Assembly: GCA_038247945.1 (NCBI GenBank)
Contig: JBBRUI010000001.1
Span: forward strand, 650 to 64,649
Direction of reading: 5' to 3'
DNA: 64,000 nt
Source: Bacteroidota bacterium
Lineage (GTDB): Bacteria > Bacteroidota > Ignavibacteria > UBA10030 > UBA6906
Shown here piece by piece: positions 28,560 to 64,000 of this stretch (the first letter of the stretch is position 1; each line of letters begins with the position of its first letter). The notes below the pieces were generated by a model, which did no database searches, was not told the origin of the DNA, and was given only the letters and a program-made list of their open reading frames with translations. A program made the translations under genes and the position numbers.

Positions 28560-28793
28560 ATGAGCGTGAAATCCACCCGGAGAGAGCGGTTCGAAAGTGT
28601 TGCCGCGAGACGTACCCAGAAAATTCTGGATTTGCTGGATATCCTCGGGAACTGTTCAAATAAGAACAACTACGAATATACGGATACAGATGTCCGCAAA
28701 ATGTTCTCAGCAATCAGAGACAAAACGAAGAGTACCGAGGCGGCCTTCGGAAATGCAATTAACCGGTCAACAAAAAATAAATTCACATTTTAA
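28560..28793 (+). CDS. Small hypothetical protein (77 aa), first gene of the AT-rich island operon
   Basis: RBS AAGGA upstream. Its stop TAA overlaps the ATG of the next gene (TAATG). Confidence 0.4.
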   Translation: MSVKSTRRERFESVAARRTQKILDLLDILGNCSNKNNYEYTDTDVRKMFSAIRDKTKSTEAAFGNAINRSTKNKFTF

Positions 28794-37223: not shown

Positions 37224-37521
37224 TGTCTCCATGCATGGCGTTCCGGCAGGAACGCTTGAGGAACACGAGCAGGGAAAGAAGTACGTCTTCCGTTATCGAG
37301 AAGAATACTCGGGCCCTGCGATCTCATTGACGATGCCTGTCGCGCAGAGGGAGTTTGCATTCGAAATCTTTCCTCCTTTTTTTGACGGTGTTCTTCCTGA
37401 AGGAGTCCAACTCGAGGGTCTCCTCCGGCAAAGGAAAATAGACCGGAGTGATTTTTTTTCGCAACTCACAGCAGTCGGTCAGGACCTCGTCGGAGCAATC
37501 ACTGTCGAAGAGGCGGAATGA
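37210..37521 (+). CDS. HipA N-terminal subdomain protein (HipS-like)
   Basis: 103 aa; SMHGVPAGTLEE...FRY...FFDGVLPEG matches HipA N-terminal subdomain 1. It overlaps both neighbours. Confidence 0.6.
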   Translation: MKRANVSMHGVPAGTLEEHEQGKKYVFRYREEYSGPAISLTMPVAQREFAFEIFPPFFDGVLPEGVQLEGLLRQRKIDRSDFFSQLTAVGQDLVGAITVEEAE

Positions 37522-47913: not shown

Positions 47914-49323
47914 ATGGCCATTCAAGCAACGATAGCAAATATTTTCATCGATCTGATTCCCGATATGTGTTTCGTGGTGTCGGGAGATCGGATGGTGCTT
48001 GCCTACAACAAGAGCGCCCGCGAACTCCTTCAATTGCCGGACCTGTCCACGAACGTCAACTTTTACGATTTGCTCACGGACGATTCGCCGAAACCCCTGT
48101 TGGCTGTTCTTCGCACAAAAGAAGAATCAGCGGAAGCAGAAGTGATGTTCAAAGGGCCGGAGGGAAAAATAATCGATGCCATGCTCTCGATAAAAAAAAT
48201 CTCAGGCCCGGAAATAGATTTTCTGTATGTTATTGCACGCGATGTTTCAGAAGCGAAGAAGAAAGAACTCGATTTGCTTCGCTTCTCCAACGTTGTTCAT
48301 TACACTGTCAACCCGATTCAAATTACGGACGCACGGGGAAGAATGGTGTATGTAAACCCGGCGTTTGAGAGATCCACCGGCTACACAAAGGAAGAGCTTA
48401 TCGGGCGTAACCCTAGTATTGTTTCGAGCGGGAAGTACAGCAAGGAATTTTGGGCGAAGGCGTGGGCTGTCATCAGCGCGGGAAAAGTCTGGCAAGGCGA
48501 GATCGAGAACAAGCGCAAGAATGGCACATCGCTGTTTACGCAGGTCCTCATCTCGCCCATCGTGGATACGGACGGAACAGTGGTCGGGTATCTCGGCTCG
48601 CACCGCGACATTACAGAACAAAAACAGCTTGAACAGCAACTGATGCATTCACAAAAGATGGAAAGCATGGGGACGCTCGCTGCCGGCATAGCACACGAAG
48701 TCGGCAACCCTCTCACGTCAATTTCCTCCATCGTGCAAGTTCTTCAGCGTACCGTCAACGATGACTACGCGAAAGAAAAATTGGGCCTCGTTCAATCCCA
48801 GGTGCACCGCATTACAAAAATCATTCGCGACCTGGTGGATTTTTCGCGACCATCGAACTACAAGCTTCAGCCCACGAACATCGTGAACAATATGAAGGAG
48901 GCGGTGGAGATCGTAAGAATGTCGCGGAAGGCGAGCAAGGTGAAGTTTTCTGTTGATGTAAAGGATGTTGTTCCACTTCTTTCACTCGTTCCCGATCAGA
49001 TTTCCCAGGTGTTCATCAACATTCTTCTGAACGGTGTCGATGCGATGGATGGAAAGCAGGGTACCATCAATGTGGTGGTAGACCGTGAAGGCGATTCGGT
49101 GCGCGTGAGCATTACCGATACCGGTTCCGGCATTGCCGAAGAAGACATGACGAAGATCGGAGAACCGTTCTTTACAACAAAACCAGTCGGACAAGGAACC
49201 GGTCTGGGATTGTGGGTGAGTCACGGCATCATAAAAAGTTTCCGCGGCGATCTTCGTTTGCGCAGCGTCCGCGGCGAAGGCACTACGTTTTCAATTGTTC
49301 TACCCTTGAATGGAAAGGAATGA
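47914..49323 (+). CDS. PAS-domain sensor histidine kinase
   Basis: Two PAS-like regions, H-box HEVGNPLTS and a HATPase_c region (DTGSGI...GTGLGL). Confidence 0.8.
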
Positions 49324-50683
49324 CATGGCAGAATCTATTCTTGTTGTCGACGATGAAGAAATTATCCGCGATTCGCTTTCGTTCGTGCTGAAGAAGGAAG
49401 GCTACCGCGTACAGCAAGCGGAGAATGGCCGCGCTGCGCTAGAGGCGTTCAAGGAAGGCTCGTTCGATCTCGTCATCACCGACCTGGAGATGCCCGAGAT
49501 GAAAGGTATTGCATTGCTCGAACAGATTACGTCGATCAGTCCGGAAACGCTGGTCGTTATCATAACGGCATACGGGTCGATTGAGACTGCTGTCGCGGCT
49601 CTACGCAAAGGTGCTGTGGATTATATCCTCAAGCCGGTCGAATTTGATGAGATGCTTGTGAAAGTGAGGCGGCTTCTCATGCAGCGCCGCCTTCAAATAG
49701 AAAACAAATTGCTGCGCAGTGAACTTCACAAAGAGTACGACTTCGCCAACATCATCGGCAAGAGTCCGGCGATGCACAAGGTCTTTGACACAATCAAAAA
49801 AGTTGCGCAGACCGATGGAACGGTGCTCGTCACGGGAAAGAGTGGCACGGGCAAAGAACTTATCGCACGCGCTATTCACTACAACAGCAAACGAAGAGAC
49901 CGGCCGTTTGTGACAGTGAACTGCGGCGCTATTGTTGAAACCCTCTTCGAAAGCGAACTGTTCGGCCACAAGAAAGGCTCCTTCACCGGAGCGTCGATGG
50001 ACCGCATCGGGTTCTTCAAGACGGCGGACAGCGGGACGATTTTTTTGGATGAAGTAAGCGAGATTCCGTTCCACCTCCAGGTAAAACTTTTGCGTGCTAT
50101 TGAATTGAAAGAGATAACTGCTGTTGGTACATCGCATCCGTTCTCCGTTGATGTGCGCATCATCGCCTCGACGAACCGCAACCTGGAGGCATTTGTCCAG
50201 GAAGGCAAGTATCGCGAAGACCTTTTCTACCGCCTGAATGTTGTGGGGATTGAACTTCCTCCGCTCTGCGAACGCGTCGAAGACATTCCGCTTCTCGTGC
50301 AGCATTTCGTTGCCAGGTATGCAAAACAAATGAGTAAATCGGTGAAAGGTGTAGATGCCGAAGCGATGAAAATCCTTCTCGCCCACTCGTGGAAGGGTGA
50401 AGTACGCGAACTCGAGAACATCATTGAGCGTGGCGTCATCTTTTCGGACGAAGAGTTTATAACAAGCAAAGAATTGCCTCAACTCGCAGAGCAACAACAC
50501 GACGTCTACTCGTTCGGCGGAGCCAAACCGCTGAAGGAATCTGTTGCAGATTTCGAACGTCAATACATTTCACACATGCTGCGCATCAATCCCGACAGAG
50601 AGGAGTTGGCGAAGGTGTTGGACATCAGCCTTTCCAGCCTCTACAGAAAGATCAAAGAGTTGAATATTCCTTCTCAGGCTTGA
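49310..50683 (+). CDS. Sigma-54-dependent response regulator (NtrC family)
   Basis: Receiver domain (VVDDEEII...D), an AAA+ sigma-54 activator domain with GSFTGA (GAFTGA variant), and a C-terminal Fis-type HTH. Confidence 0.85.
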   Translation: MERNDMAESILVVDDEEIIRDSLSFVLKKEGYRVQQAENGRAALEAFKEGSFDLVITDLEMPEMKGIALLEQITSISPETLVVIITAYGSIETAVAALRKGAVDYILKPVEFDEMLVKVRRLLMQRRLQIENKLLRSELHKEYDFANIIGKSPAMHKVFDTIKKVAQTDGTVLVTGKSGTGKELIARAIHYNSKRRDRPFVTVNCGAIVETLFESELFGHKKGSFTGASMDRIGFFKTADSGTIFLDEVSEIPFHLQVKLLRAIELKEITAVGTSHPFSVDVRIIASTNRNLEAFVQEGKYREDLFYRLNVVGIELPPLCERVEDIPLLVQHFVARYAKQMSKSVKGVDAEAMKILLAHSWKGEVRELENIIERGVIFSDEEFITSKELPQLAEQQHDVYSFGGAKPLKESVADFERQYISHMLRINPDREELAKVLDISLSSLYRKIKELNIPSQA

Positions 50684-50818
50684 GAATTATTGTAGCTTCT
50701 TTCTTACAAATCGGAACAATCCAAGTTTAGGCTCCTTCTCGCCAAAAATCTATTTTTGGAATTGTAGCCCCAGCGCTCGTACGCCAAGCATTTAACGCGT
50801 GGCCCCCTTCCCGCCGTC

Positions 50819-50835
50819 TGGCACATTACTTGAAA
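50819..50835 (+). promoter_or_regulatory. Candidate sigma-54 promoter upstream of the usp gene
   Basis: TGGCAC-attac-TTGAA. Spacing is correct and the -24 element is perfect, but the -12 lacks GC. Confidence 0.3.
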
Positions 50836-50876
50836 ATGTACCACCAGCATTGATTCTAAATACGCGGGTAAACGTC

Positions 50877-51377
50877 ATGATTTATCTTAAAAAAATTCTT
50901 ATTACCACGGATTTGTCAGAGCATTCTTTTGCAGGGTTCGAACACGGGCTCTCGTTCGGGCTTTTGTACGGAGCGAAGGTATATGTCCTGTACGTTGTTG
51001 CGCGCACTGCCCCCATGCTGGTGCTTCATGGTGTTGAGGGGGATATAGAGTTGCAGTCTGCCCAGAATGTAGAAGCAGGAGTAAAGAAACTCAACAGTTT
51101 TATTTCCGAACATTTAGGAACGGATAGAAAAGTTATTCCCGTTGTACGAAGCGGTATTGCCGAAGAAGAGATTATCCGGTTTGCTGAAGAAGAACATGTG
51201 GACCTGATTGTTCTTGCGACGCACGGATGGACGGGGATGAGGCACATCTTCATGGGAAGCGTTGCCGGGAAACTGGTGAGACATTCAACAATACCCGTGC
51301 TGACAGTAAAACCGGCGCCGATGCAGGATGAAATCGTCCGCGATGAGGATGTGGAAAAGGAATTGCATCTCCGATGA
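50877..51377 (+). CDS. Universal stress protein (UspA family)
   Basis: ILITTDLSEHS...LIVLATHGWTGMRHIFMGSVAGKLVRHSTIPVLTV. Start taken at the ATG at 50877. Confidence 0.75.
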   Translation: MIYLKKILITTDLSEHSFAGFEHGLSFGLLYGAKVYVLYVVARTAPMLVLHGVEGDIELQSAQNVEAGVKKLNSFISEHLGTDRKVIPVVRSGIAEEEIIRFAEEEHVDLIVLATHGWTGMRHIFMGSVAGKLVRHSTIPVLTVKPAPMQDEIVRDEDVEKELHLR

Positions 51378-51401
51378 AAACTTCCCGGAAAGACAATTGC
51401 C

Positions 51402-51836
51402 GTGACGCTTGAACTGCAAAAGAAAGACCTGAACGCCCTCCAGCCGTCAGGCCTGAAGTTGACAACCGTTGACGAGAAGAAAAAGACAATTCTCATCTAT
51501 AGTCCGGATCTGAATTTCTGTTTCAGCCTCTCCATGCTGTTTCAGAACAAGTTCAATGTTATCACCACCACGAACCCTTCGACGCTTGAATCGTTCGTTA
51601 TGCATTACTCCGCGAATCTTTTGATCGTTGATGCCTCCCCATCAGCTAAGATGCGCGAACAACTGCACGCGTTGAAGGAACTGAACCATGAACTGCCGAT
51701 CATTATGCTGTATGTGTATAGTCCCAAGGAGGCTCTTCTTGATCAAGATGTCCGTAAAGAAGTAGACTCTGTATTTTACAAGCCATTTGACCTCTCGGCA
51801 GTTTCCACACGCATCAACGGCCTTCTTTCTGTGTAG
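51402..51836 (+). CDS. Receiver-domain-like protein (stand-alone, possibly atypical)
   Basis: ILIYSPD...LLIVDAS...FYKPFD fits a CheY-like fold pattern. Assignment of the phospho-acceptor residue is uncertain. Confidence 0.4.
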   Translation: MTLELQKKDLNALQPSGLKLTTVDEKKKTILIYSPDLNFCFSLSMLFQNKFNVITTTNPSTLESFVMHYSANLLIVDASPSAKMREQLHALKELNHELPIIMLYVYSPKEALLDQDVRKEVDSVFYKPFDLSAVSTRINGLLSV

Positions 51837-52009
51837 AAGGTTGCAGTTCTCCGCGGATACTTTCCCTGAAAGATTCCCGCAAATAGAAATTTCTCTCATT
51901 CTTTGGAAAAATCCGCGGTCGGATTGCATGAATGTGGCAATTTTATACAATTACGCTTGGCATGTCAATTGGACTCAGTACGGTGTTAGTTAGATGGAAT
52001 CAAACTGAA

Positions 52010-54190
52010 ATGGAAGCTATAAACATATTCAATGTCCCGATCAGGAAACGGATTTTCCTGCACCTCCTTTTCCCTCTGTGGGTTCTGCTCCTCCGGCCTC
52101 CCATTGTGCCTGCCCAGGAAAACCCTGTCTGCCTTACATGCCATGCAGAAAACTCCCTGACAAAGGAAGATCACGGGCGCGTTCGGTCGTTGTTTGTGGA
52201 TGGGAAGGGATTCCAGAAATCTGCGCACGGCGAATTGGAGTGCGTTTCATGCCACGAGGGATTTCGAGCCGATGTACTTCCCCATGCGCGCAAAATAAAG
52301 CGTGTTGACTGTACTTCGTGCCACGCGGAACAACAGTTCGTGAACTACAAACAAAGCGTTCACGGAAAAGCGAAGGCGGGAAAGGTCGCCGGTTCATGCA
52401 GCGACTGCCATACAACACATGCCATTCAGAAAATCTCGGACAAGCAATCAAGTGAGAGAAAGGAATTTGCCGCGCAGATTTGCGAGCAATGTCATGCCGA
52501 TGTGAAGACGAAGTACATGGCATCGAATCACGGTATTGCCCTTGCTGCGGGCGTGAAGGGCGCCCCGACGTGCATTGATTGCCACGGCGAGCACGAAGTT
52601 GCATCGCCCATGTCTGAAGGAGCGCTAACGAGCAGAAAAAGAGAAGCAGAGATGTGCCTCAGTTGCCATCAAGACAAAGAGGAAGTGCGCGCGCGTGTCG
52701 GTCCATCGGCTGGTTTCATTGCAAGTTATGAGAATAGCGTTCACGCAAAGGCAGTGATGGAAGGGAATGAAGCTGCAGCTACATGCAGCGATTGTCACGG
52801 AAGCCACGAAATGAAGAAGGGCTCGAATGCGGAATCAAAAGTATCAAAACAGCATATCGCGGCAACATGCGGCCAGTGCCACGGCGATGTGAAAGAGCAA
52901 TATGAAGGAAGCATTCACGGCAAGGCGCTTGCTTCGGGTATCATCGCGTCGGCAACGTGCACGGATTGTCATGGCGAGCATAATATTCTTTCGCACAGCG
53001 ACCCGCGTTCACCGGTCGCCCCGAAAAATGTTTCCGCACAGGTGTGCTCGCCATGCCATGCGTCGGTGAAGTTGACGCAAAAGTTCGGGCTTGCAAGTGA
53101 TCGCTTCACGAGTTTTGCGGACAGCTATCACGGCCTTGCAAGCAAAGCCGGCTCCATCGAAGTGGCGAACTGTGCAAGCTGCCACGGTGTGCACGACATC
53201 AAACCCTCATCAGATTCCACGTCGAGAATTGCGCCAAAGAATCTTGTGCAAACGTGTGGCACGTGCCATCCGGGTGCGAATGTGAACTTTGCCAAAGGGA
53301 AAGTGCACATCATTGCCACGTCCGGGGAGGACAGAATTCTGTACTATATTTCAACCGGATATATTGCACTCATCATTCTCACCATCGGTGGAATGGTGTT
53401 TCATAATATTCTCGATTTCATCAAGAAATCGAAGCGGCAGTTAATGTATCGTCGGGGATTGTTACCACGCAAGCATCACTCGCCGAAGATGTACCTCCGC
53501 ATGTCGCTTGATGAACGTCTTCAGCACGGGACATTGTTGGTGAGCTTCACGGTATTAGTGATAACCGGTTTTGCGTTGCGGTTTCCGGATGCGTGGTGGG
53601 TCGAGACGATCCGAAGCATCAGCCCGGCAATGTTTGAGCTGCGGAGTTGGTCGCATCGCATTGCAGGCGTCATCATGGTCCTCGCCAGCCTCTATCATGT
53701 ATATTACCTCTTTTTTGTTCCGCGTGGAAAACAACTTCTTCGCGATATGCTGCCAGTGCGAGAAGACATTTCACAGGTTGTGGGAGTTTTTAAATATTAT
53801 TTCGGCTACTCTTCTGAGAAGCCACAGTTCAGACGCTTTAGTTACATTGAGAAAGTGGAGTATTGGGCGCTGATTTGGGGAACGATTGTAATGGCGGTGA
53901 CGGGCTTCATTCTCTGGTTCGATAACACGTTCATGGGGCTGCTCACCAAATTGGGTTGGGATATTGCTCGAACGGTTCACTACTACGAAGCATGGCTTGC
54001 CACACTCGCCATCGTTGTCTGGCATTTTTATTTCGTGATCTTCAACCCCGATACCTATCCGCTCAACCTTGCATTCTGGAAAGGGACATTGACGGAGGAA
54101 GAAATGGAAGAAGAGCATCCGCTTGAGTTGGAAGAAATAAACCGACGCGAGTTGCTGGAGAAATCTTCCGAAGAAGAGTTGAAGTCCTGA
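52010..54190 (+). CDS. CbcL-like fused multiheme cytochrome c (~13 CxxCH) plus a b-type cytochrome membrane domain
   Basis: About 13 CxxCH motifs in the periplasmic part. The C-terminal ~280 aa have about 5 TM helices with conserved His (HydC/FdnI-like). The start (ATG 52010, signal peptide MEAINIF...PAQE) is uncertain; the track ORF begins at 51932. Confidence 0.6.
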   Translation: MEAINIFNVPIRKRIFLHLLFPLWVLLLRPPIVPAQENPVCLTCHAENSLTKEDHGRVRSLFVDGKGFQKSAHGELECVSCHEGFRADVLPHARKIKRVDCTSCHAEQQFVNYKQSVHGKAKAGKVAGSCSDCHTTHAIQKISDKQSSERKEFAAQICEQCHADVKTKYMASNHGIALAAGVKGAPTCIDCHGEHEVASPMSEGALTSRKREAEMCLSCHQDKEEVRARVGPSAGFIASYENSVHAKAVMEGNEAAATCSDCHGSHEMKKGSNAESKVSKQHIAATCGQCHGDVKEQYEGSIHGKALASGIIASATCTDCHGEHNILSHSDPRSPVAPKNVSAQVCSPCHASVKLTQKFGLASDRFTSFADSYHGLASKAGSIEVANCASCHGVHDIKPSSDSTSRIAPKNLVQTCGTCHPGANVNFAKGKVHIIATSGEDRILYYISTGYIALIILTIGGMVFHNILDFIKKSKRQLMYRRGLLPRKHHSPKMYLRMSLDERLQHGTLLVSFTVLVITGFALRFPDAWWVETIRSISPAMFELRSWSHRIAGVIMVLASLYHVYYLFFVPRGKQLLRDMLPVREDISQVVGVFKYYFGYSSEKPQFRRFSYIEKVEYWALIWGTIVMAVTGFILWFDNTFMGLLTKLGWDIARTVHYYEAWLATLAIVVWHFYFVIFNPDTYPLNLAFWKGTLTEEEMEEEHPLELEEINRRELLEKSSEEELKS

Positions 54191-54261
54191 GCGTTTTTCA
54201 GCGAAGGATTATCAAAGTTTGTCGAGTTCAGTATGGTTTGCAAAGAGGTTTTTGAATTCTG

Positions 54262-56340
54262 ATGTTACACAAAACACCAAATCATTTTTGTAGGGATGTG
54301 CGCTTGCGCCGTCCCGCGTTGCCTTACCGCAAGCGAAGCGGAGTTATTGCTCGGTTTTGGACATGGCGGAGCCATGTCCCTACGATTTTCTTCATTTGGT
54401 TTGTTGGGGCGATGGCGTCTCAGACGTTCGCACAGGAGAACAGCGATTGCCTGATATGTCACAGCGATAAGTCGGCAACAGGCAAACGCAACGGCAGAAC
54501 TATTTCCATCTATATCAACGAAAAGAAGTTTACCGGGTCGATCCATACTTCCTTGCAATGTGTGGGATGCCATACCGACGTTGCCGGCAAAGATTTTCCT
54601 CACGACGAACAGTTGGCGAAAGTGGAATGCGGAACCTGTCATACAACTGAACAAGAGCTTCATGCAAAGTCGCTGCACGGCAAAGCAATCAACCGCGGTG
54701 ACGCGTTGGCACCGCGGTGCAAGGATTGTCACGGCACCCACGATATATATTCTGCGAAAGACTCCCGCTCCCAAGTCGCTGCGCTGAAAGTCCCATTCCT
54801 CTGTGCTAAATGCCATCAAGAGGGAACGAAAGTGATGCAGCAACGGAACATCCATCAAGACCACATCCTCGAAAATTTCTCCGAGAGCATTCACGGCGAA
54901 GCATTGTTCAAGAAGGGGTTGATTGTTGCACCGAACTGCGCTTCATGCCATACGGCGCACTCGATTCTTCCTCATACCGATCCCGCATCATCCATCGCTC
55001 GAAAAAATATCTCGGCCACATGCGCCAAATGTCACGCACAAATCGAGGCGGTACACCGAAAAATAATCAAGGGTGAATTGTGGGAGAAGCAAGCGCACAC
55101 GTTGCCTGCATGTGTTGATTGCCACCAGCCGCACAAAGTGCGGAAGGTATTTTACGATCAAGGGATGGCGGACTCGGATTGCATGCGCTGTCATAACAAC
55201 GAAGCGTTGAAGTCGGGCAAAGATGGTCGCTCACTCTTTGTTCGCATGGATGAAAAGATTCAGTCGCGTCATGCGAAGACGGCATGCAGCCAATGTCATT
55301 CCGAAGTGAACGCCTCGCATGTGCGACCGTGCGAGACGATTACGAAGAAGGTGGATTGTGCCTCATGCCATGCCGAAGTTGGACAGCAATATGTGAAGAG
55401 TACGCACGGGCAGTTGATTGCAAAGAACGACCCGAATGGACCGACGTGTAAAGAATGCCACGGAACGCATGGAGTGAAGGGGAAGCTCCAGCCGGAATCG
55501 CCGACGTTTGCAACCAATATTCCCAAGCTCTGCGCACGTTGCCATCGCGAAGGAGAGAAGGCTGCCGTTCGTTACTCCGGAAGCCAGCACGACATCATCG
55601 CGCATTACACGGAAAGCATTCACGGCAAAGGTTTGATGAAGAGTGGACTCACGGTGACGGCAACGTGCACAAGCTGTCACACTGCGCATAGCATGTTGCC
55701 GAAGACTGATTCGTTGTCGAGTGTGAATCCAAAAAACGTTCCGGCGACATGCGGGCGTTGCCATCATGGAATTGAAGAACAGTTTGAGCAGAGCATCCAC
55801 CATGTAAAGGTCGGGAAGACCGACAAGCCACTGCCCGTCTGCAACGACTGCCACAGCGCGCACACAATCCGCCGCGCAGATGAGCAAGGCTTCAAGCTGG
55901 ACATTATGACCAAGTGCGGACGCTGCCACGAAGACATTGCAAAGACGTACTTCGATACGTATCACGGCAAAGTCTCGCAACTCGGTTACACTAAAACGGC
56001 AAAGTGTTATGATTGCCATGGCGCGCACGATATTCTTGCCGTTGCCGACCCGAAATCTCATTTGAGTCGCGAGAATGTTGTTGCAACATGTCAGAAATGC
56101 CACGAAGGCGCAACCAGAAAATTTGCAGGCTACTTAACGCACGCGACGCACCACGACCCGCAGAAGTACCCATTCTTGTTCTGGACGTTTTGGGGAATGA
56201 CCGGCTTGCTGGTTGGAACATTTGTCCTTGGTGGCGTGCACACAATTCTCTGGCTACCGCGTGCGCTGCAAATGAGAAGAGAATTGAAAAAAGAGTCTGA
56301 ACGAAAAGACAATCCTAATGCAAACGACAATCAAAAATGA
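54262..56340 (+). CDS. Multiheme cytochrome c (~19 CxxCH), C-terminally membrane-anchored
   Basis: About 19 CxxCH motifs, a signal-like hydrophobic stretch PTIFFIWFVGAMASQTFAQE and a C-terminal TM helix. The start codon is uncertain because of a long N-terminal extension. Confidence 0.7.
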   Translation: MLHKTPNHFCRDVRLRRPALPYRKRSGVIARFWTWRSHVPTIFFIWFVGAMASQTFAQENSDCLICHSDKSATGKRNGRTISIYINEKKFTGSIHTSLQCVGCHTDVAGKDFPHDEQLAKVECGTCHTTEQELHAKSLHGKAINRGDALAPRCKDCHGTHDIYSAKDSRSQVAALKVPFLCAKCHQEGTKVMQQRNIHQDHILENFSESIHGEALFKKGLIVAPNCASCHTAHSILPHTDPASSIARKNISATCAKCHAQIEAVHRKIIKGELWEKQAHTLPACVDCHQPHKVRKVFYDQGMADSDCMRCHNNEALKSGKDGRSLFVRMDEKIQSRHAKTACSQCHSEVNASHVRPCETITKKVDCASCHAEVGQQYVKSTHGQLIAKNDPNGPTCKECHGTHGVKGKLQPESPTFATNIPKLCARCHREGEKAAVRYSGSQHDIIAHYTESIHGKGLMKSGLTVTATCTSCHTAHSMLPKTDSLSSVNPKNVPATCGRCHHGIEEQFEQSIHHVKVGKTDKPLPVCNDCHSAHTIRRADEQGFKLDIMTKCGRCHEDIAKTYFDTYHGKVSQLGYTKTAKCYDCHGAHDILAVADPKSHLSRENVVATCQKCHEGATRKFAGYLTHATHHDPQKYPFLFWTFWGMTGLLVGTFVLGGVHTILWLPRALQMRRELKKESERKDNPNANDNQK

Positions 56341-57274
56341 AATGGCAATAGAGGAAGAAAAGAAATCGCCTGTCGACGTCGCACCGCCGGTGGTTCAGAA
56401 TTCATCCCGCAGTCATTCCGCGATGAGTGAACGATTGGATGAAGTGGGCGAAAAACAATTCCTCCGCTTCTCGCGTCTCAACCGGACACTGCATGTCATC
56501 ATGATTGTGAGTTTTATGAGTCTGGCGCTCACGGGCATGACGCTGAAGTTCTCGTACACAGGCTGGGCATCGTTCCTCTCGCATTTGTTTGGCGGCTACG
56601 AGTCGGCGGGGTTCATTCACCGCTTTGCTGCCGTGTTGATGGTGGGAATCTTCATCACACACATTACGGATTTGGCGCGGCAGAAAAAGAAGGAATTTGG
56701 TTCGTGGAAAGCCCTGCTGCTGGGCCCGGACTCCATGCTCTTCAACAAAAAGGATTTTCAGGATTTCATCGGCAACGTGAAATGGTTCTTACACAAGGGA
56801 CCGCGCCCGAAGTACGGACGCTGGACGTATTGGGAGAAGTTCGATTACTTTGCTGTGTTCTGGGGAATCTTTGTCATCGGCTCCACAGGTTTTATGCTTT
56901 GGTTTCCGGAATTCTTTACGCGTTTTATACCGGGAGAGTTCCTCAACATTGCCTCCATTATCCACAGCGATGAAGCCCTACTTGCAGTCGGGTTCATTTT
57001 TACGGTGCACTTCTTCAACACGCATCTCCGTCCCGAAAAGTTTCCGATGGACATCGTTGTCTTCACAGGACGCATGGAGTTGGAAGAGTTCAAGCTCGAC
57101 AAACCGGCGGAGTACGAAGCGCTTGTGAAGAGCGGCGAATTGGAAAAATATCTTGTTGAGCCATATCCGCCCATAGTGATCAGAGCTGTACGCGTTTTTG
57201 GCTGGACCGCGCTGACAATCGGTTTCAGTATAGTTATTTGGATTATTTATGCAATGATGTTTGCTTATAGGTAA
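56318..57274 (+). CDS. b-type cytochrome membrane subunit (Ni/Fe-hydrogenase/FdnI-type cytochrome b family)
   Basis: FLRFSRLNRTLHVIMIVSFMSLALTGM and further TM helices with His. 318 aa. Confidence 0.6.
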   Translation: MQTTIKNEMAIEEEKKSPVDVAPPVVQNSSRSHSAMSERLDEVGEKQFLRFSRLNRTLHVIMIVSFMSLALTGMTLKFSYTGWASFLSHLFGGYESAGFIHRFAAVLMVGIFITHITDLARQKKKEFGSWKALLLGPDSMLFNKKDFQDFIGNVKWFLHKGPRPKYGRWTYWEKFDYFAVFWGIFVIGSTGFMLWFPEFFTRFIPGEFLNIASIIHSDEALLAVGFIFTVHFFNTHLRPEKFPMDIVVFTGRMELEEFKLDKPAEYEALVKSGELEKYLVEPYPPIVIRAVRVFGWTALTIGFSIVIWIIYAMMFAYR

Positions 57275-57329
57275 ATCGACACGTAAATTCTTGTTAGTTT
57301 GTCTGCTCGATGCACTTTCAAGAGAATCT

Positions 57330-58823
57330 ATGAAACGTATTTTTCCAACTTCGTTCTACAATACCCTTACGCTCATCGGCACATTCGTCGCCGGAGTGAG
57401 CCTCGGCATTTTCTTCTTTCTGTTCCTTTTGGAAGCGACTGCCGAACATCCCAACCCGTATATCGGCATCATGGCTTTCGTGATCCTGCCTGTATTCCTT
57501 GTATTGGGCGCGCTTTTGATGGTTGTCGGGGTAATCCGGGAACATCGGCGGGAGCGACTCGGCAAGCCTCATGGTCTGCACCTGCCGAAGATTGATCTGA
57601 ACAACCCGCATCATCGGACGGCGTTGACGTTGGTCGCGTTCGGTGCAATCGCGCTGCTCGGGTTCATTACGTTCAGCAGTTTCAAAGGATATGAGTACAC
57701 CGAGTCTGATCAATTCTGCGGCGAAACTTGCCACACGGTGATGGAACCGGAATATACGGCGTACCAGTTCTCTCCCCACGCCCGCGTCGGATGCGTGCAA
57801 TGCCACATCGGGTCGGGAGCGAGTTACTTTGTCAAGTCAAAGCTCTCCGGCAGTTATCAGGTGTACGCGGCAATATTCAACAAGTTTCCCAGACCGATTC
57901 CCACGCCCATCAATAATCTTCGTCCGGCGCAGCAAACATGCGAGCAATGCCACTGGCCGAAACAGTTTTTCAGCGAGAAGTTGCGCTCCAATTCGTACTA
58001 CATCTCAGATGAAAAAAATACAAAGTGGACGCTCGATTTGTTGATGAAGGTAGGTGGTGGAAATATTGAAGCCGGCCCGACGTCCGGCATCCACTGGCAT
58101 ATGAACCTCGCCAATGAAGTAACGTATGCTGCAGCGGACTCACAACGACAATCCATTCCATGGGTACAAATCAAAGGGCCGGATGGCAAGATAGAAGTGT
58201 ATCGCAGCACGGAGAATCCGGTCAGTGATGACGATCTGAAAAAAATGGAAACGCGGCGGATGGATTGCATCGATTGCCATAATCGTCCCACACACATCTA
58301 TCATCCGGGGGCGCGATCAGTCAATCACGTAATGGCGTTGGGATGGATCGACCCGAAATTGCCGAACGTGAAAAGCACCGCAGTCAATGCTCTCGAGGGT
58401 TCGTACGCCACAAAACAAGCTGCGCAGGACAGTCTCAAGCTGTTCATCGAGGAGTACTATCAAACCAATTATCCCGAAATTATGCGGACGAAGAAAGCAG
58501 AAATCGATCGGACAGTCGCGGAGGTGCGGAAGATTTACAGTCGCAGCTATTTCCCCGAGATGCGGGTGAGCTGGAAAAAGTACCCCGATAATCTCGGACA
58601 TATGTATTATCCCGGCTGCTTCCGGTGTCACGACGGGAAACATGTTTCGGAGAGCGGCAAAACCCTGTCGCGGGATTGCAATACGTGCCATACAATTCTC
58701 TCCCAGCGGTTCGAGCAGGATTCTTTGCGCCTATCGCTCGGCGGCGTCGAATATAAACACCCTGTCGACATTGGCGACGCGTGGAAGGATACGAATTGCA
58801 GCGATTGTCATAACCAACAATGA
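57330..58823 (+). CDS. ImcH-like inner-membrane heptaheme cytochrome (NapC/NirT-related)
   Basis: 2-3 N-terminal TM helices, then seven heme motifs. The first is the atypical CGETCH (CX3CH) and the rest are CxxCH. A NapC/NirT-like segment FSPHARVGCVQCH is present. Start taken at the ATG at 57330. Confidence 0.55.
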   Translation: MKRIFPTSFYNTLTLIGTFVAGVSLGIFFFLFLLEATAEHPNPYIGIMAFVILPVFLVLGALLMVVGVIREHRRERLGKPHGLHLPKIDLNNPHHRTALTLVAFGAIALLGFITFSSFKGYEYTESDQFCGETCHTVMEPEYTAYQFSPHARVGCVQCHIGSGASYFVKSKLSGSYQVYAAIFNKFPRPIPTPINNLRPAQQTCEQCHWPKQFFSEKLRSNSYYISDEKNTKWTLDLLMKVGGGNIEAGPTSGIHWHMNLANEVTYAAADSQRQSIPWVQIKGPDGKIEVYRSTENPVSDDDLKKMETRRMDCIDCHNRPTHIYHPGARSVNHVMALGWIDPKLPNVKSTAVNALEGSYATKQAAQDSLKLFIEEYYQTNYPEIMRTKKAEIDRTVAEVRKIYSRSYFPEMRVSWKKYPDNLGHMYYPGCFRCHDGKHVSESGKTLSRDCNTCHTILSQRFEQDSLRLSLGGVEYKHPVDIGDAWKDTNCSDCHNQQ

Positions 58824-58836
58824 AAGATCCGGCAAT

Positions 58837-59292
58837 ATGATTAATGACGGACGCGATCGATTCGAGAACGGCAAGCGCGATTTCCTGAAATACGTGCTGG
58901 GCGGAAGCCTCATCGCATGGGCAGGATCCATTCTGTACCCTCTGTTCGCGTACCTTAAACCGCCGAAGCAGGCGGAAGTTGAAGTGAGCAGCGTTAAGGT
59001 CGGCAAGCTGTCGCAGATTGACAAAGACAGCGGCACCATTGTTCGGTTCGGCAACAAGCCAGTCATTCTCGTCCGGACCGCAACCGGTGATCTCCGCGCA
59101 TTCTCCGCGACCTGTACGCATCTTGATTGCACTGTTCAATACCGTAAGGACTTTGGCGCGATCTGGTGCGCGTGTCATAACGGACGGTACGACCTGAATG
59201 GCCGCAACATTGCCGGTCCGCCTCCGCGCCCTCTCGATGAATATCGTGTCATCGTTCAGGGCGAAGAAGTTCTTATCTCTAAAAAATCATGA
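58837..59292 (+). CDS. Rieske [2Fe-2S] iron-sulfur protein
   Basis: CTHLDC...CACHNGRY (CxH-x15-18-CxCH boxes). N-terminal TM anchor. Start at the ATG at 58837; the track's upstream extension is not real. Confidence 0.8.
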
Positions 59293-60368
59293 AAACATAT
59301 CTAACAAGATGTTATGAATGGATTGACGAACGTGTGCAACTCGACAGTCTCGTCACCTTTATGGGCAAAAAATATGTGCCCGTCCATCGCAATTCCGTCT
59401 GGTACTACTTCGGTGGTGTCACGCTGTTTCTATTCATCGTCCAGGTCGTGACGGGAATTCTTCTGCTGCTGTATTACAAGAGCGGCGAGGAACTCGCGTT
59501 CGAGAGCATCCAATTCATCATGTCGAAAGTCCAGTTCGGCTGGCTGATCCGCTCCATTCATAGCTGGGCAGCGAATCTCTTTATTCTCGCCGCGGTGATT
59601 CACATGTTCAGCGTCTACTTCGAAAAGTCATATCGCAAGCCGCGGGAAGTAACATGGCTTACGGGTATGCTGATGTTGTTTCTCGGGTTAGGTTTCGGCT
59701 TCAGCGGATATCTCCTTCCGTGGAATGAGCTTGCGTTCTTCGCGACAAAAGTCGGAACCGATATTGCCGGCGTTGTTCCGGTGGTTGGCAAACCGATCAT
59801 GATATTTTTGCGCGGCGGAGAAGATGTTACAGGCGCAACGTTATCGCGGTTCTTCGGTTTTCACGTCGCAGTATTTCCGGGAATATTTACGCTCCTGCTC
59901 GGCATTCACTTGATTCTCGTGCAACGTCAGGGGATGAGTGAACCGATGCACGCTGAACGCGACCCGGGGAAGCCGCACAAGACGATGCCGTTTTTCCCGA
60001 ACTTCCTCCTAAGAGATCTATTGCTGTGGCTGATCGTGTTGAATATTATAGCGATCCTTGCCGTGTTCTTTCCGTGGGAGTTGGGAAAGAAAGCGGACGC
60101 GTTTGCTTCCGCGCCGGCGGGCATTTTGCCCGAATGGTATTTCCTGTTCATGTTCCAGACGTTGAAGTTCCTTCCGGCGAAGATGCTCTTTATCGACGGC
60201 GAGGTGTTCGGCATTATTCTGTTCGGCATTGCAGGACTGCTCTGGTTGCTCGTTCCGTTCTGGGATAAAAAAAGCGCACGCGGTGAGCGGAACCGCGCCG
60301 TGAATTACATCGGAATTTTTGTCGTCGGTTATATCATTCTTTTTACTATTCTCGGGTGGACTTTATGA
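59289..60368 (+). CDS. Cytochrome b (fused b6/subunit IV type) of a Rieske/cytochrome b complex
   Basis: [22 protein letters not shown]...[18 protein letters not shown]...[24 protein letters not shown] shows typical cytochrome b helices with His ligands. It overlaps the Rieske stop (ATGA). Confidence 0.85.
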
Positions 60369-61852
60369 GGGGAACACTTTTGGTATTGTGCATGTTGTTT
60401 GTAGGGAGTCACTGGAATCATGGACGCGCAGCCGACAAGTGTTTTACATGCCACGAATCGATCAGTGATAAGGCTTCGACGCTTTTCAAACATGATATCC
60501 ATTTTCAAAAAGGAATATCCTGTTCGGATTGTCATGGCGGAAATCCGAAATCCGACGACATGGAAAGAGCGATGAATAAGGCCGCGGGATTCCTCGGTGT
60601 GCCCAAAGGAGACAATATCTCGAAGACGTGCGCAACGTGCCATTCAGATTCTGCTAGGATGAAATCATATGGATCGAAACTTCCGACCGATCAATGGGAG
60701 AATCTGCAGACGAGCGTTCACGCGAAGCTTTCAATTTCCGGGAAAGAACATATCGCGCAATGCACAACCTGCCACAACGCGCACGGTATCGTTCCCGTGA
60801 ACAATCCGGCATCACCGGTTTTTCCTCTGAATGTTGTAAAGACCTGCACGCAGTGTCACGCGAATGCGACGTTCATGAGAACATATAATCCCTCGTTGCC
60901 CATTGATCAGCGTGAGAAATACCGGACAAGTGTCCATGGGATGAAGAACGCAAAGGGCGATCCGAAAACTGCCGAGTGTGCAAGCTGCCATGGAAGCCAC
61001 AATATCCGTTCAGCCAAAGATCTGAAGTCGACGGTGTATGCGACGAACATTCCGGCGACGTGCAGCCACTGTCACAGCGATGCGGAGTATATGAAGCCGT
61101 ACAAAATTCCCACGGATCAATACAAAAAATATGCATCCAGCGTTCATGGTATTGCGCTTCTCCAAAAGCACGACGTAGGCGCGCCTGCCTGCAACAACTG
61201 TCACGGCAACCACGGAGCGATGCCTCCGGGAGTGGAATCTATTTCCAAAGTCTGCGGCACGTGTCATGCGCTAAATGCCGATTTGTTCTCAGCGAGTCCC
61301 CATAAAAAAGCGTTCGATGAGCTGCAGCTTCCGGAATGCGAGACATGCCACAGCAACCACGACATCGAACCGGCCACCAAACAACTCCTCGGGACGTCCC
61401 CGGAAGCGGTCTGTAGTCGTTGCCACAGCGAGACCGACAATCCGAAAGGATTTCAGGTGGCAGCGATCATGCGCGGGTTAAGCGACAGTCTCGATGTAAC
61501 GGGCAACCGTGCCCGTGCGTTGATTGAAGAGGCGGAACAAAAAGGAATGGAAGTCGGTGAAGCGAAGTTCAAGTTGCGCGACGCTCACCAGGCAAAACTC
61601 GAATCCCGGACAACGGTCCATGCATTCAACGAATCAAAATTTCGGGACGTTATTGTCAAGGGATTAGTGACAACGTCTCTTGTAACCGGGCAGGCAAGGG
61701 AGGCCATCGACGAATACTTTTTCCGGCGCTTTGGCCTGGGAATTGCAACCCTAATCATAACAGTTGTCGCGGTGTCGTTGTACTTGTTCATCCGACGGAT
61801 TGAACGTCGACAAAAAAAGAGAACCGTACCTTACAATCCACAGAACACATAA
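60356..61852 (+). CDS. Multiheme cytochrome c (~11 CxxCH), C-terminal TM anchor
   Basis: Signal peptide, 11 CxxCH motifs and a C-terminal hydrophobic anchor ([17 protein letters not shown]). Confidence 0.75.
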
Positions 61853-61871
61853 ACTTTCGAGGAGGATTATC

Positions 61872-62411
61872 ATGCGGTACCTACGTTTCGTGAACATGGC
61901 TCTCGCCTTCACAATTATGTTTGCATTTTCAATGCACGCGGAGAACAAGTATGTGGGAACAAAATTCTGTGCTGCGTGCCATAAAGGTGGCAAGGGAGGA
62001 ACAGCATATACCGTCTGGGAAAAAAGTAAGCACGCACAGGCATATAAGGTCCTGCTGACTGACGAAGCAAAGAAGATCGCAAAAGAAAAAGGTCTTAAAG
62101 TTGCGCCGAACGAAGCCCCTGAATGCTTGAAATGCCACGTCACAGGTGGCGGAATGGCGAAGAACGTGGAAGCAACATTCAAGAAAGAGGATGGTATTGG
62201 CTGCGAAACCTGCCATGGGGCCGCATCCGGATATAAGATGATTCATGCCAAAGGAGATAAAGCCAAGAACAAAGAGGCAGGAATGCTGGTTCCGGGAAAG
62301 GACGAAAAGATGTGTGTGACATGCCATAACGCTGAAAGCCCGACATTCAAAGGATTCAAGTTCAACGAGATGTGGGCGAAAATCGAACACGGCAAGCCGG
62401 CGAAGAAGTGA
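61872..62411 (+). CDS. Tetraheme cytochrome c (c554-like family)
   Basis: RBS GGAGGA upstream, a signal peptide and four CxxCH motifs (CAACH, CLKCH, CETCH, CVTCH). Confidence 0.7.
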   Translation: MRYLRFVNMALAFTIMFAFSMHAENKYVGTKFCAACHKGGKGGTAYTVWEKSKHAQAYKVLLTDEAKKIAKEKGLKVAPNEAPECLKCHVTGGGMAKNVEATFKKEDGIGCETCHGAASGYKMIHAKGDKAKNKEAGMLVPGKDEKMCVTCHNAESPTFKGFKFNEMWAKIEHGKPAKK

Positions 62412-62598
62412 TTCGCGTAATCTTGAACCGGTGTCATGAGGGTTCTTCGTGACACCGTGTTTCAGGGTTTTGAAATCAAGCCGAAGAACTCGCTCCTGTA
62501 GTTCTCAATTCTTGGGATTCTTCGGGCAAGTTCTCCCAAAAATTGGAAATCAAAACCACATTACCTTTGTTGCGGTTAGTTTTCACCGGCCAATTGTG

Positions 62599-62615
62599 TG
62601 GCACAATGGTTGCAT
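62599..62615 (+). promoter_or_regulatory. Sigma-54 (RpoN) promoter
   Basis: TGGCAC-aatgg-TTGCAT is an exact -24/-12 consensus (TGGCAC-N5-TTGCW), about 45 nt upstream of the ATG at 62660. Confidence 0.55.
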
Positions 62616-62659
62616 TTCTCAACAGTTGGTTCCCCACGTTAGATCAGGTAGAGATCACC

Positions 62660-63979
62660 ATGAAAAAACTACTCTCCTTCATACTGCTTCTCATTCTCTC
62701 GCATTTTGCCGTGCGTGCTGTCTCCTACGCACAGGTTATTAACGGCCGGCTTATCGGGTCGGTGTACACGTTCGAGAAATTCGATACGGTCAACGTATCG
62801 AAGAAATTCGTCAGAGGATTTCAATCGGCGCTTCTTGATGCAACCTTTTCTGACTTCAGTATTCATACCCACTTTCAGGTTGCCGGCATGTTACAGAAGC
62901 AACTCGATGAGGTCCCCGACTATCGCTTTTATTATCTCTACGGTCAGTGGAAGAATATTTTTAACAGAGCCGATCTTTCGTTCGGGCGGCTGCCATATTT
63001 CGCAGGCGTGGGAAACGGAACGATCGACGGCGGATTGCTGACGCTGCGATTTGCAGAGAATAAATTCCGACTCACGGCATACGGTGGCCAAACTACACCG
63101 CTGGAATACGAACTCAAGGGTTGGAAGAAATTGAAGAATAATTTTACACTCGGCGGACAAATGGTTGTCACCGCGTTTGAAGGCACTCGGATCGGCGTTA
63201 GCTATGTGAATCGCCATCGCGAGAAGTCAGGATACTGGGCGAGCCGTGCGGACTCTCTCTTTAATCCGATTCAGATGTTCATAATCCCTACCCTGGCAAA
63301 GGAACAATATGTAAGCGGCGATGCTTCTGTCCGGTTTGGTTCATCGAGTGTCTACGGCCGCTATGATTACGATCTGAATTTCAAAAGAACACAGCGCACC
63401 CAGCTTGGGGTTCGTGTCGGAGTGTGCGATGAGCTCAGCATTAGCGGCGATTTCATCCACCGCGAACCGCGTGTAATGTACAATTCATTCTTCTCCGTCT
63501 TCGACCTTAAATCTGTTGACGAATATGAGCTTGGCGGCGACTACACTTTGTTTCCCGAAGTCCGGGCATTCGTTCGTGGTGCATACGTAAAATATTCCGG
63601 CGACAAAGGTTTTCGCTACACCGTTGGCATCGCGCATCAATACTTCGGCATCACATACCGGGGAAGTACAGGCTACGCTGGCGAGCTTGATAATGCCAGC
63701 GTTCAGGCGACGTATCCGTTATTTGACAATGTCTTTATCCCATCACTGGGATTCGCGTATATGACGTATCGGCTGGATAATAATGGGTCACGTGACGAGG
63801 GCATTGCCGGAACGCTTGGTGCAACTGTACGTCCCTGGCAGCAACTTTCATTCGATGTGCAGGGACAGTGGCTGCGCAACAAGATTGTTCAGAACGACGT
63901 TCGCCTTTTTGCGAAAGTGAACTTCTGGTTCACTGCAAACCTTTCCGATGATACGCCATCGGAAACTGTAAAGGAATGA
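62660..63979 (+). CDS. Putative outer-membrane beta-barrel protein
   Basis: Signal peptide MKKLLSFILLLILSHFAVRAVSYAQ, then 440 aa of alternating amphipathic beta-strand-like sequence rich in G/Y/T/R. It lies last in the cytochrome cluster under a sigma-54 promoter. Confidence 0.45.
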   Translation: MKKLLSFILLLILSHFAVRAVSYAQVINGRLIGSVYTFEKFDTVNVSKKFVRGFQSALLDATFSDFSIHTHFQVAGMLQKQLDEVPDYRFYYLYGQWKNIFNRADLSFGRLPYFAGVGNGTIDGGLLTLRFAENKFRLTAYGGQTTPLEYELKGWKKLKNNFTLGGQMVVTAFEGTRIGVSYVNRHREKSGYWASRADSLFNPIQMFIIPTLAKEQYVSGDASVRFGSSSVYGRYDYDLNFKRTQRTQLGVRVGVCDELSISGDFIHREPRVMYNSFFSVFDLKSVDEYELGGDYTLFPEVRAFVRGAYVKYSGDKGFRYTVGIAHQYFGITYRGSTGYAGELDNASVQATYPLFDNVFIPSLGFAYMTYRLDNNGSRDEGIAGTLGATVRPWQQLSFDVQGQWLRNKIVQNDVRLFAKVNFWFTANLSDDTPSETVKE

Positions 63980-64000
63980 TTGAAAAAGGAAATTCTATGA

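Follow-up and report, generated by a model that had tools for sequence, protein, structure and literature searches.

Can an uncultured Ignavibacteriota-type bacterium pass electrons from its menaquinone pool to partners outside the cell, and are the parts for doing so encoded in one gene cluster? This question is raised by a multiheme cytochrome locus at the right-hand end of a 64,000-nucleotide (nt) stretch, hereafter the window, of contig JBBRUI010000001.1 (Bacteroidota bacterium, GenBank assembly GCA_038247945.1). A preliminary description had placed there, at 51932-63979, a sigma-54-controlled block with CbcL-like, ImcH-like and Rieske/cytochrome b modules and a beta-barrel, and had proposed it as a conduit for extracellular electron transfer (EET). 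According to our analysis, the block is probably the larger part of a respiratory regulon that would link the menaquinone pool to extracellular redox partners. We regard the cluster as a good candidate route for electron transfer to minerals or electrodes in Ignavibacteria-type bacteria.

The gene calls rest on translations of the open reading frames (ORFs), on heme-motif counts, and on Pfam and NCBIfam scans. From 47914 to the window end all substantial ORFs lie on the + strand and the majority of them abut or overlap, so the co-directional, mostly overlapping multiheme block is as first described, with all listed genes close-packed or overlapping. The unit is larger than the 51932-63979 interval. 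It starts at 47914 with a PAS kinase and a sigma-54 activator and reaches beyond 64000. Its 5' part (47914-51836) encodes the PAS histidine kinase, the sigma-54 activator, a universal stress protein (Usp) and a receiver-like protein. Upstream of 47914 the genes have unrelated functions (PAP2, SurA-like isomerases, MoxR).

Four predicted inner-membrane quinol:cytochrome c oxidoreductase modules follow each other in the same direction: a CbcL-type fusion, its split paralog, an ImcH-type protein and a Rieske/b6/11-heme module. Their genes, and that of a small tetraheme cytochrome behind them, are:

52010..54190, + strand: CbcL-type fusion with signal peptide, 13 c hemes, a linker transmembrane (TM) helix and a 4-helix FdnI-type diheme b domain
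54262..56340, + strand: 19-heme cytochrome c (19 CXXCH) with C-terminal anchor, predicted c-subunit of a split CbcL/CbcBA-type module
56318..57274, + strand: FdnI-type diheme cytochrome b, predicted partner of the 19-heme protein (PF01292, TIGR01583; 23-nt overlap)
57330..58823, + strand: predicted ImcH-family inner-membrane heptaheme quinol dehydrogenase (3 TM helices, CX3CH plus 6 CXXCH, NapC/NirT N-terminal region, E 4e-14)
58837..59292, + strand: Rieske [2Fe-2S] subunit with N-terminal anchor (PF00355, E 2e-13; TM_PetC)
59289..60368, + strand: cytochrome b6-type b fused to a subunit-IV-like C-terminal part (PF00033, E 5e-49; PF00032)
60356..61852, + strand: 11-heme cytochrome c (11 CXXCH) with C-terminal anchor (TM helix 461-479)
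61872..62411, + strand: soluble periplasmic tetraheme cytochrome, c554-like (PF13435, E 2.5e-19; 4 CXXCH, signal peptide, no TM helix)

Motif counting recovered all of the contents given earlier for these proteins (13 hemes plus b, 19, b, Rieske, b6-type, 11 and 4). For the remaining one, the 7-heme protein, the total of seven motifs holds and the composition is corrected to six CXXCH and one CX3CH.

The cluster was compared with its relatives in a survey of 80 species-representative genomes that contain the closest relatives of the 7-heme protein, in which 10-kilobase flanks were scanned for 13 window proteins.

By every published sequence feature tested, the assignment of the 7-heme protein to the ImcH family is supported. 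ImcH homologs have been defined by three N-terminal TM helices, an adjoining CX3CH motif, six CX2CH motifs and a length of 495-519 residues (PMC6295460). The window protein has 497 residues, hydropathy peaks at 15-33, 51-69 and 97-115, and a CGETCH motif (CX3CH) at residue 130, adjoining the last TM helix. Geobacter ImcH (GSU3259) was compared via published motif positions and residue lists. In this comparison, the TM helices of GSU3259 (13-35, 45-67, 100-122) are also three and N-terminal, and the heme motif positions are 130/155/204/313/430/450/490 in the window protein and 132/156/205/311/428/448/486 in GSU3259. According to a preprint on ImcH, heme 1 is ligated by H137 and Q179, and E127, K173 and Y188 are conserved in the pocket (GSU3259 numbering). 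Counted from the motif histidine, which in the window protein is H135, the residues E125, K171 and Q177 have identical offsets to those of E127, K173 and Q179 from H137. At the Tyr188-equivalent position, in contrast, the window protein has Phe (F186).

An alignment of 80 homologs shows all heme motifs, K171 and Q177 to be invariant (80/80). The acidic pocket position (E125) is Glu or Asp in 80/80, and the Tyr188-equivalent position is Tyr in 64, Phe in 13 and Val in 3. One relative, GBD86519.1 of Bacterium BMS3Abin03 (survey locus L037), is 58% identical to the window protein and is listed among the ImcH homologs by Zhong and Shi 2018 (PMC6295460). The literature gives 31-49% similarity to GSU3259 for ImcH homologs outside Geobacter. 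By sequence, the sole solved relative in the PDB is NrfH (2j7a_C, E 7e-5). The reading as an ImcH-like, NapC/NirT-related membrane cytochrome is thus borne out by the signature, the heme spacing, the invariant pocket Lys and Gln and a listed relative. The BMS3Abin03 locus (BDSV01000045.1, 10001-13600) carries tandem ImcH-like genes, 58% and 54% identical to the window protein, before its Rieske/cytochrome b genes.

Among the ways in which it could fail, the preliminary description had named that the fusion and the 7-heme protein belong to unrelated families such as Nrf or octaheme reductase. Motif counts in the translations found no CXXCK motif in any of the cluster proteins, and every Nrf, NapC and TorC NCBIfam score lies far under its cut-off; Nrf, octaheme-reductase and NapC/TorC identities were therefore rejected. 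The Pfam and NCBIfam scans detected no catalytic reductase subunit or domain encoded in the cluster.

The CbcL-like fusion of c- and b-type cytochrome domains was also correctly recognised. It contains 13 CXXCH motifs, matches PF01292 Ni_hydr_CYTB (E 4e-19) and TIGR01583, and is built like CbcL/MtrH/MtoC, the four heme-b histidines of FdnI all being kept. Its b domain aligns full-length with E. coli FdnI (1kqf_C), where His18/57/155/169 are all matched, and H506/H549/H657/H672 of the fusion are invariant in 34 homologs. Five TM helices (one linker plus four) follow the signal peptide according to hydropathy and the helix pattern of an AlphaFold2 model, which is only moderately confident (pLDDT 67) and was used solely for the helix count. 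A longer ORF opens at 51932, but the start is most likely at 52010, because a conserved sigma-54-like element (51958-51973) falls inside the longer ORF. According to Zhong and Shi, the CbcL/MtrH/MtoC family spans 3-23 hemes, and some members have 4-5 TM segments while most have six (PMC6295460).

The cytochrome b that had been described as a separate subunit is present, but it does not stand apart from the 19-heme protein: the two form one split module. The 19-heme protein is a paralog of the heme domain of the fusion (E 1e-55), and the cytochrome b is 30% identical to the b domain of the fusion (E 6e-30) with the four His aligned, and carries an extra C-terminal TM helix. Fused 19-heme CbcL/MtrH/MtoC homologs have been reported (OGU58019.1, 952 residues; Caldithrix Cabys_319, 920 residues; PKP08298.1, 913 residues; PMC6295460), and the 19-heme motif spacing in the window is the same as in these three. 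Judged by paralogy and spacing, the 19-heme protein and the cytochrome b belong together as the split version of a protein whose fused version occurs in other genomes of the Fibrobacterota-Chlorobiota-Bacteroidota (FCB) group. A frameshift origin of the split was rejected, because the overlapping split recurs in many relatives.

In the PDB no recognisable ImcH or CbcL structure was found by sequence; only NrfH, FdnI and entry 28pb_A matched. The last of these ("Cytochrome c", 278 residues) can be aligned to heme motifs one to five in the c domain of the fusion (E 1e-5 to 3.5e-5) and might represent the soluble domain of a CbcL-type protein.

The Rieske plus cytochrome b module, as noted before, has canonical boxes, b-heme His and PEWY. 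CTHLDC (residue 93) and CACHNG (residue 111) form the Rieske boxes. In the PDB, the cytochrome b is most similar to cytochrome b6 (E 2e-58). Its His pairs, His91/105 (13 residues between, helix B) and His192/207 (14 residues between, helix D), lie within TM helices, and PEWY is at residue 281. In box II (CACHNG-R-Y), Gly occupies the position at which Rieske proteins of high potential carry Ser. Gly in this place suggests a lower-potential cluster of the menaquinol type, and this may be the case here. In the place of a c1/f-type subunit with one or two hemes, the module has an anchored 11-heme cytochrome. The 11-heme protein would replace cytochrome c1/f, because it is present together with Rieske and cytochrome b6 in 38/67 loci. 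The ImcH gene stops 14 nt short of the Rieske gene; this four-gene block recurs in relatives. Against the model of ExtP, a cytochrome b of the Geobacter selenite/tellurite operon, the window cytochrome b scores 203 bits (E 3.7e-60); the cut-off is 290, and identity as an ExtP equivalog was rejected. The tetraheme gene that follows is found in relatives either before ImcH or before the barrel, and its product is proposed to be a periplasmic shuttle.

Beyond the tetraheme gene, the window ends with a porin gene and the first codons of another cytochrome gene:

62660..63979, + strand: modelled outer-membrane beta-barrel, about 22-24 strands, no plug; predicted porin of a porin-cytochrome unit
63976..64000, + strand: start of a 12-heme periplasmic cytochrome gene, 8 codons (MIEKGNSM), with an ATGA overlap with the barrel stop

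The barrel protein has 439 residues and a signal peptide. It has no Pfam or NCBIfam match. That it is a beta-barrel, as proposed before, is supported by its AlphaFold2 model (pLDDT 86.5), which is a barrel with 24 strand elements and has structural matches to outer-membrane barrels only. The eight residues MIEKGNSM are identical to the N-terminus of a 369-residue protein with 12 CXXCH motifs behind the barrel in survey locus L082. Among the related loci with enough flank, the barrel is followed in 20/20 by a cytochrome of 353-420 residues with 12 or 14 hemes. The gap between the two genes is -14 to +11 nt in 19/20 loci and about 220 nt in L049. The next further ORF is a 5-14-heme protein in the 19 loci where it is readable, often with a lipobox.

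As read from gene order, this succession of barrel and cytochrome is the layout of porin-cytochrome (Pcc) clusters. One such cluster is known from Ignavibacterium album (IALB_1837-1840), which encodes a porin, a periplasmic cytochrome of 400 residues and 14 hemes, and an outer-membrane cytochrome containing an atypical motif (Shi 2014, PMC4245776). The coupled 12-heme cytochrome is the obvious candidate to fill the barrel lumen, because a plug-less barrel of such size needs something inside. The idea of a conduit is strengthened by the pairing in 20/20 relatives and by the truncated 12-heme gene; from these we infer the extracellular function.

The layout is widely conserved. Among the loci with enough flank, a CbcL-like fusion lies upstream of the ImcH homolog on the same strand in 49/71, Acidobacteriota among them. 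The 19-heme/cytochrome b pair is found in 22/60 loci, the barrel in 20/58 and a sigma-54 activator upstream on the same strand in 21/56. Eight loci hold the complete gene set (L002, L010, L015, L018, L020, L036, L043, L049). A bare core of kinase, activator, receiver-like protein, 13-heme fusion and 7-heme protein is found in metagenome-assembled genomes (MAGs) of Ignavibacterium album and Ignavibacterium sp. (L060, L067, L068). The pair of fusion and 7-heme protein also occurs in Acidobacteriota (L074, L075, L077, L081) and Verrucomicrobiia (L073). The presence of CbcL and ImcH homologs in one cluster is therefore confirmed, but it is not exceptional, since adjacency of the two is the common state outside the Geobacter group. 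The fusion protein has a match of 100% identity (P0121) on an NCBI contig of 65,061 nt; other close matches come from uncultured Ignavibacteriae/Bacteroidota.

Two loci are particularly close to the window. L082 (ENA ERZ28573536, scaffold_4064) shares 90%-identity clusters with the window barrel and ImcH proteins, lacks the 19-heme/b pair and has a second c554-like tetraheme gene. L049 (CAADGV010000009.1, "Chlorobi CHB1") is the closest for most genes, with 74-85% identity over most of them but only 54% for ImcH, and its c554 gene is placed before ImcH. These differences of whole modules between L082, L049 and the window point to recombination or module replacement inside the cluster.

The regulatory genes at the 5' end and the candidate control elements of the cluster are:

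47914..49323, + strand: soluble PAS-PAS-HisKA-HATPase sensor histidine kinase (PAS_9, E 4.6e-28; HisKA, HATPase_c)
49310..50683, + strand: NtrC-type response regulator/sigma-54 activator (Sigma54_activat, E 8e-69; Response_reg, E 3e-32; HTH_8, Fis-type)
50697..50716, + strand: candidate activator-binding site TTCTTTCTTACAAATCGGAA upstream of the Usp promoter
50819..50834, + strand: sigma-54-type -24/-12 element TGGCACATTACTTGAA before Usp
50877..51377, + strand: universal stress protein (Pfam Usp, E 1.4e-25), at the same position in relatives
51402..51836, + strand: small receiver-like protein, no Pfam family
51891..51908, + strand: candidate activator-binding site TTCTCTCATTCTTTGGAA, 68 nt before the -24 GG of the fusion promoter
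51958..51973, + strand: sigma-54-like -24/-12 element TGGCATGTCAATTGGA before the fusion, with a non-consensus -12
62419..62469, + strand: strong RNA hairpin just after the c554 stop (minimum free energy -30.3 kcal/mol, z = -6.1, 0/200 shuffles as stable)
62531..62548, + strand: candidate activator-binding site TTCTCCCAAAAATTGGAA, 69 nt before the -24 GG of the barrel promoter, with an aligned element in L049
62599..62614, + strand: consensus sigma-54 promoter TGGCACAATGGTTGCA, an exact TGGCAC-N5-TTGCA, 46 nt before the barrel ATG

The PAS kinase adjoins the sigma-54 activator in related clusters too, and the activator has the GSFTGA loop at residue 223 of its AAA+ domain. A homolog of the receiver-like protein is found at the same position in L001, L014, L023, L049, L060, L082 and others. 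This protein keeps a putative phospho-acceptor Asp (LLIVDAS), lacks the N-terminal acidic pair, and is a constant companion of the kinase/activator and the cytochromes.

Before Usp, TGGCACA-N4-TTGA(A/C) is kept in 6/6 aligned loci in a diverged spacer, and an aligned element ATTCCCACAAnTCGGAAT upstream of this promoter is conserved in five relatives. Before the fusion, TTGGCAT-N5-TTGAC is kept in 6/6 close relatives, the spacer otherwise being diverged, and the window has TTGGA at -12. An element similar to TTCTCTCATTCTTTGGAA, namely TCTCGCAnnATTGAGAA, is conserved upstream of it in relatives, and its spacing equals that of the barrel promoter. At the equivalent place before the barrel, TGGCA(C/T)-N5-TTGCC is found in L049, L002 and L052.

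Counts in the window show how far such matches can be trusted. The sigma-54 consensus with one mismatch allowed gives 2 matches where 2.2 are expected, and a degenerate search gives 3 sites where 0.3 are expected (fusion, barrel and an unrelated minus-strand site at 46580-46595). The loose activator-site pattern is non-specific alone, with 15 matches in the window. The single exact promoter match is not significant alone either, and carries weight because of its conservation in relatives. A strict TGGCAY-N5-TTGCH scan upstream of the relatives' genes found few sites, and the aligned spacers show TTGA at -12. Generic sigma-70 promoter and terminator scans gave chance-level results, and no rpoN gene was found within the window. 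The claim of a consensus sigma-54 promoter before the barrel holds, as an exact match with equivalent elements in relatives, while control of the cluster by the adjacent activator is something we infer.

The simple terminator scan missed the hairpin at 62419-62469, after which the sequence continues with GGGUUUUG. The hairpin likely ends the first transcription unit; therefore two cytochrome transcription units are read, plus one for Usp.

Putting these parts together, the following route can be proposed. The soluble PAS kinase and the sigma-54 activator would turn on the promoters of Usp, the quinol-oxidase operon and the barrel operon together. Menaquinol would be oxidised by whichever of the four parallel modules suits the potential of the acceptor, by analogy with Geobacter ImcH, CbcL and CbcBA. 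Electrons might then pass from the anchored multiheme domains to the tetraheme shuttle and to the 12-heme protein threaded through the barrel, and from there to surface lipoprotein cytochromes and on to Fe(III)/Mn(IV) minerals, humics, an electrode or a partner cell. Multiheme cytochromes of Ignavibacteriaceae are up-regulated on anodes (PMC10874420).

An extension of this scheme is more speculative, and we consider it unlikely as it stands. ImcH, Rieske, cytochrome b6 and the 11-heme protein could act as one functional unit, and the cluster as a four-oxidase "gearbox" set by the PAS-kinase/sigma-54 pair according to acceptor potential, perhaps reversibly. If the unit were real, EET would be tied to a Q-cycle, and these bacteria would have a way, absent from Geobacter, of conserving energy with high-potential acceptors.

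Several observations weigh against a regulon for extracellular electron export. The outer-surface cytochromes lie beyond the window end, and the window itself holds the barrel and eight codons of the gene behind it. No sequence relation between the barrel and known EET porins was detectable, and its structure is that of a large barrel of generic type, with MtrB only 36th among the structural matches. The Usp and fusion promoters have TTGA/TTGG at -12 and not the canonical TTGC. I. album, which has the core and a Pcc cluster, was reported not to reduce solid Fe(III)/Mn(IV) (PMC4245776), so that something other than a metal oxide may be the natural partner. Finally, the sequence does not fix the direction of electron flow.

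This last point leaves room for an inward chain, in which electrons from Fe(II), a cathode or a syntrophic partner would enter the quinone pool. The Rieske/b and CbcL/MtoC-type modules would then reduce quinone or take part in an uphill/downhill split. Chains of Fe(II) oxidisers typically include a Rieske/cytochrome b complex. The CbcL relatives MtoC and MtrH occur in Fe(II) oxidisers, the family has been proposed to be bidirectional (PMC6295460), and Mtr/Pcc systems can run both ways (PMC8258643). However, quinol oxidation is the only role in which ImcH has been implicated to date (PMC6295460), and pcc clusters had not been found in any known Fe(II) oxidiser (PMC4245776). Within the window, the cluster is not linked to genes for carbon fixation or terminal oxidases, and Ignavibacteria are reported from anodes and iron-reducing enrichments. 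An inward chain is for these reasons rather improbable.

The regulon for electron export also has to be compared with a CymA-like periplasmic network that feeds soluble-acceptor reductases encoded elsewhere (for nitrite, N-oxides, arsenate, selenite or polysulfide). The pair of barrel and cytochrome would then serve a cell-impermeable soluble or colloidal substrate and not minerals. NapC/NirT-type proteins such as CymA do serve many periplasmic reductases, and Shi 2014 suggests that Pcc in non-iron-reducers handles other substrates, e.g. S0 or selenite (PMC4245776). The cytochrome b score against ExtP, from the selenite/tellurite operon, fits this explanation although it is below the cut-off, and so does the core pair of I. 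album with no adjacent barrel. On the other hand, no reductase gene is linked in the 80 loci, which were scanned only for homologs of window genes. The triplet of barrel, multiheme cytochrome and lipoprotein is a dedicated trans-outer-membrane layout, and the barrel shares its promoter type and candidate upstream site with the quinol oxidases. We find such a network doubtful.

That the modules are independent respiratory units lying merely side by side, with no common regulation or pathway, is very improbable: module content varies among close relatives (no 19-heme/b pair in L082, a divergent ImcH in L049) and the strong hairpin parts the barrel unit from the rest, but the modules co-occur recurrently across phyla, their genes overlap or nearly abut, and three promoters of one rare type with similar upstream elements lie beside a sigma-54 activator.

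With export to extracellular partners kept as the preferred explanation, the question is what the cluster adds to earlier work. ImcH homologs were known from Melioribacter and Ignavibacteria (Levar 2014; Zhong and Shi 2018, PMC6295460), and CbcL homologs from Ignavibacteriae and Bacteroidetes (Zhong and Shi 2018, PMC6295460). Pcc clusters have been published for I. album (PMC4245776), M. roseus and environmental Ignavibacteriales. Six multiheme cytochromes and a barrel, described as "previously uncharacterized", were reported from an anode-enriched Bacteroidetes MAG. The multi-omics paper on M. roseus contains no data on iron reduction or on these genes, and a 2024 study stated that the EET mechanism of Ignavibacteria and relatives is not known (PMC10874420).

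In the literature searched, we found neither the integrated layout with a Rieske/cytochrome b/11-heme complex and a shared regulator, nor a description of CbcL-ImcH adjacency or of a sigma-54 two-component link. None of the matches listed in the literature searches combined Ignavibacteria, Rieske, multiheme cytochromes and EET. The novelty claimed for this lineage thus applies to the integrated layout, undescribed in the literature searched, and was overstated for its parts, as ImcH, CbcL and Pcc homologs in Ignavibacteria had been published.

Ignavibacteria and relatives are common in sediments, aquifers and wastewater reactors and on anodes, and the cluster gives them a concrete, complete and widely conserved candidate pathway from the regulator to the outer membrane. 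In Geobacter, the ImcH and CbcL types are kept apart and serve different potentials; in other phyla they are normally found next to each other. That such a cluster includes a Rieske/cytochrome b complex whose c subunit has 11 hemes raises the question of Q-cycle-coupled electron export. The value of the analysis lies in a testable map; no new principle is revealed.

Elsewhere in the window, the region 28000-34000 has a low GC content (0.38-0.42 compared with about 0.49) and is probably a restriction-modification or defence island. Three of its ORFs (28793-30793, 30790-31779, 31776-32567) have no Pfam matches, and the first of them is a weak match to PADLOC PDC-M33A (1e-12). On the - strand, at 32557-33792, a convergent gene encodes a C5 cytosine DNA methylase (PF00145, 1e-61; PADLOC DrmMII, 1e-162). 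Further genes encode a 1099-residue tricorn-type protease with PD40 repeats, Tricorn C1/PDZ and Peptidase_S41 domains (19440-22739, +), a bacterial homolog of the angiotensin-converting-enzyme family (25962-27755, -; Peptidase_M2, E 3e-106), and a protein with a HipA-like kinase C-terminal domain (37518-38447, +; PF07804, 2e-47), possibly a toxin-antitoxin element. Rfam and tRNA scans of the window gave no matches.

Compared with known systems, the cluster combines familiar modules in altered form. In Geobacter, ImcH (GSU3259) is encoded at a separate locus, whereas here its homolog is found 14 nt upstream of the Rieske/cytochrome b/11-heme genes and downstream of the CbcL-type genes. Like Geobacter CbcL (GSU0274), MtrH and MtoC, the fusion has an N-terminal multiheme c part followed by a diheme b part of the FdnI/HydC type with the His kept. 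GSU0274, compared here via published motif tables and family descriptions, has 9 hemes and six TM helices, in contrast to 13 hemes and 1+4 helices in the fusion and 19 hemes in the split paralog. Two paralogous copies are present in one operon here, the 19-heme version as two overlapping genes. This version resembles, by description, CbcBA of Geobacter sulfurreducens, a multiheme c with a single C-terminal TM helix plus a separate 4-TM diheme b. CbcBA has 7 hemes, compared with 19 here, and the b subunit in the window has an added C-terminal TM helix.

With b6f and menaquinol-type complexes, the fourth module shares the Rieske CTHLDC/CACH boxes, the b-heme His pairs, PEWY and the subunit-IV-like part. 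It differs in the fusion of b6 and subunit IV, in the absence of Cys at the heme-ci position (VWYYFGG), and in its c subunit, an anchored 11-heme protein. In the ext cluster of Geobacter, the conduit ExtHIJKL lies next to the bc-type complex ExtMNOPQS. The window is similar in that a trans-outer-membrane conduit adjoins a complex with a b6-like cytochrome b, and different in having a true Rieske subunit and an 11-heme subunit.

The outer-membrane part is closest, by gene order, to the Pcc cluster of I. album and to OmaB/OmbB/OmcB of Geobacter, with a small periplasmic cytochrome, a barrel, a 12-14-heme cytochrome of about 400 residues and an outer-membrane cytochrome. From MtrCAB of Shewanella it differs in strand number (26 there, about 22-24 here), in showing no detected sequence homology, and in its cytochromes. 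In I. album, no barrel is found beside the core pair in the MAG locus L060, whereas in the window the quinol oxidases and the Pcc unit adjoin.

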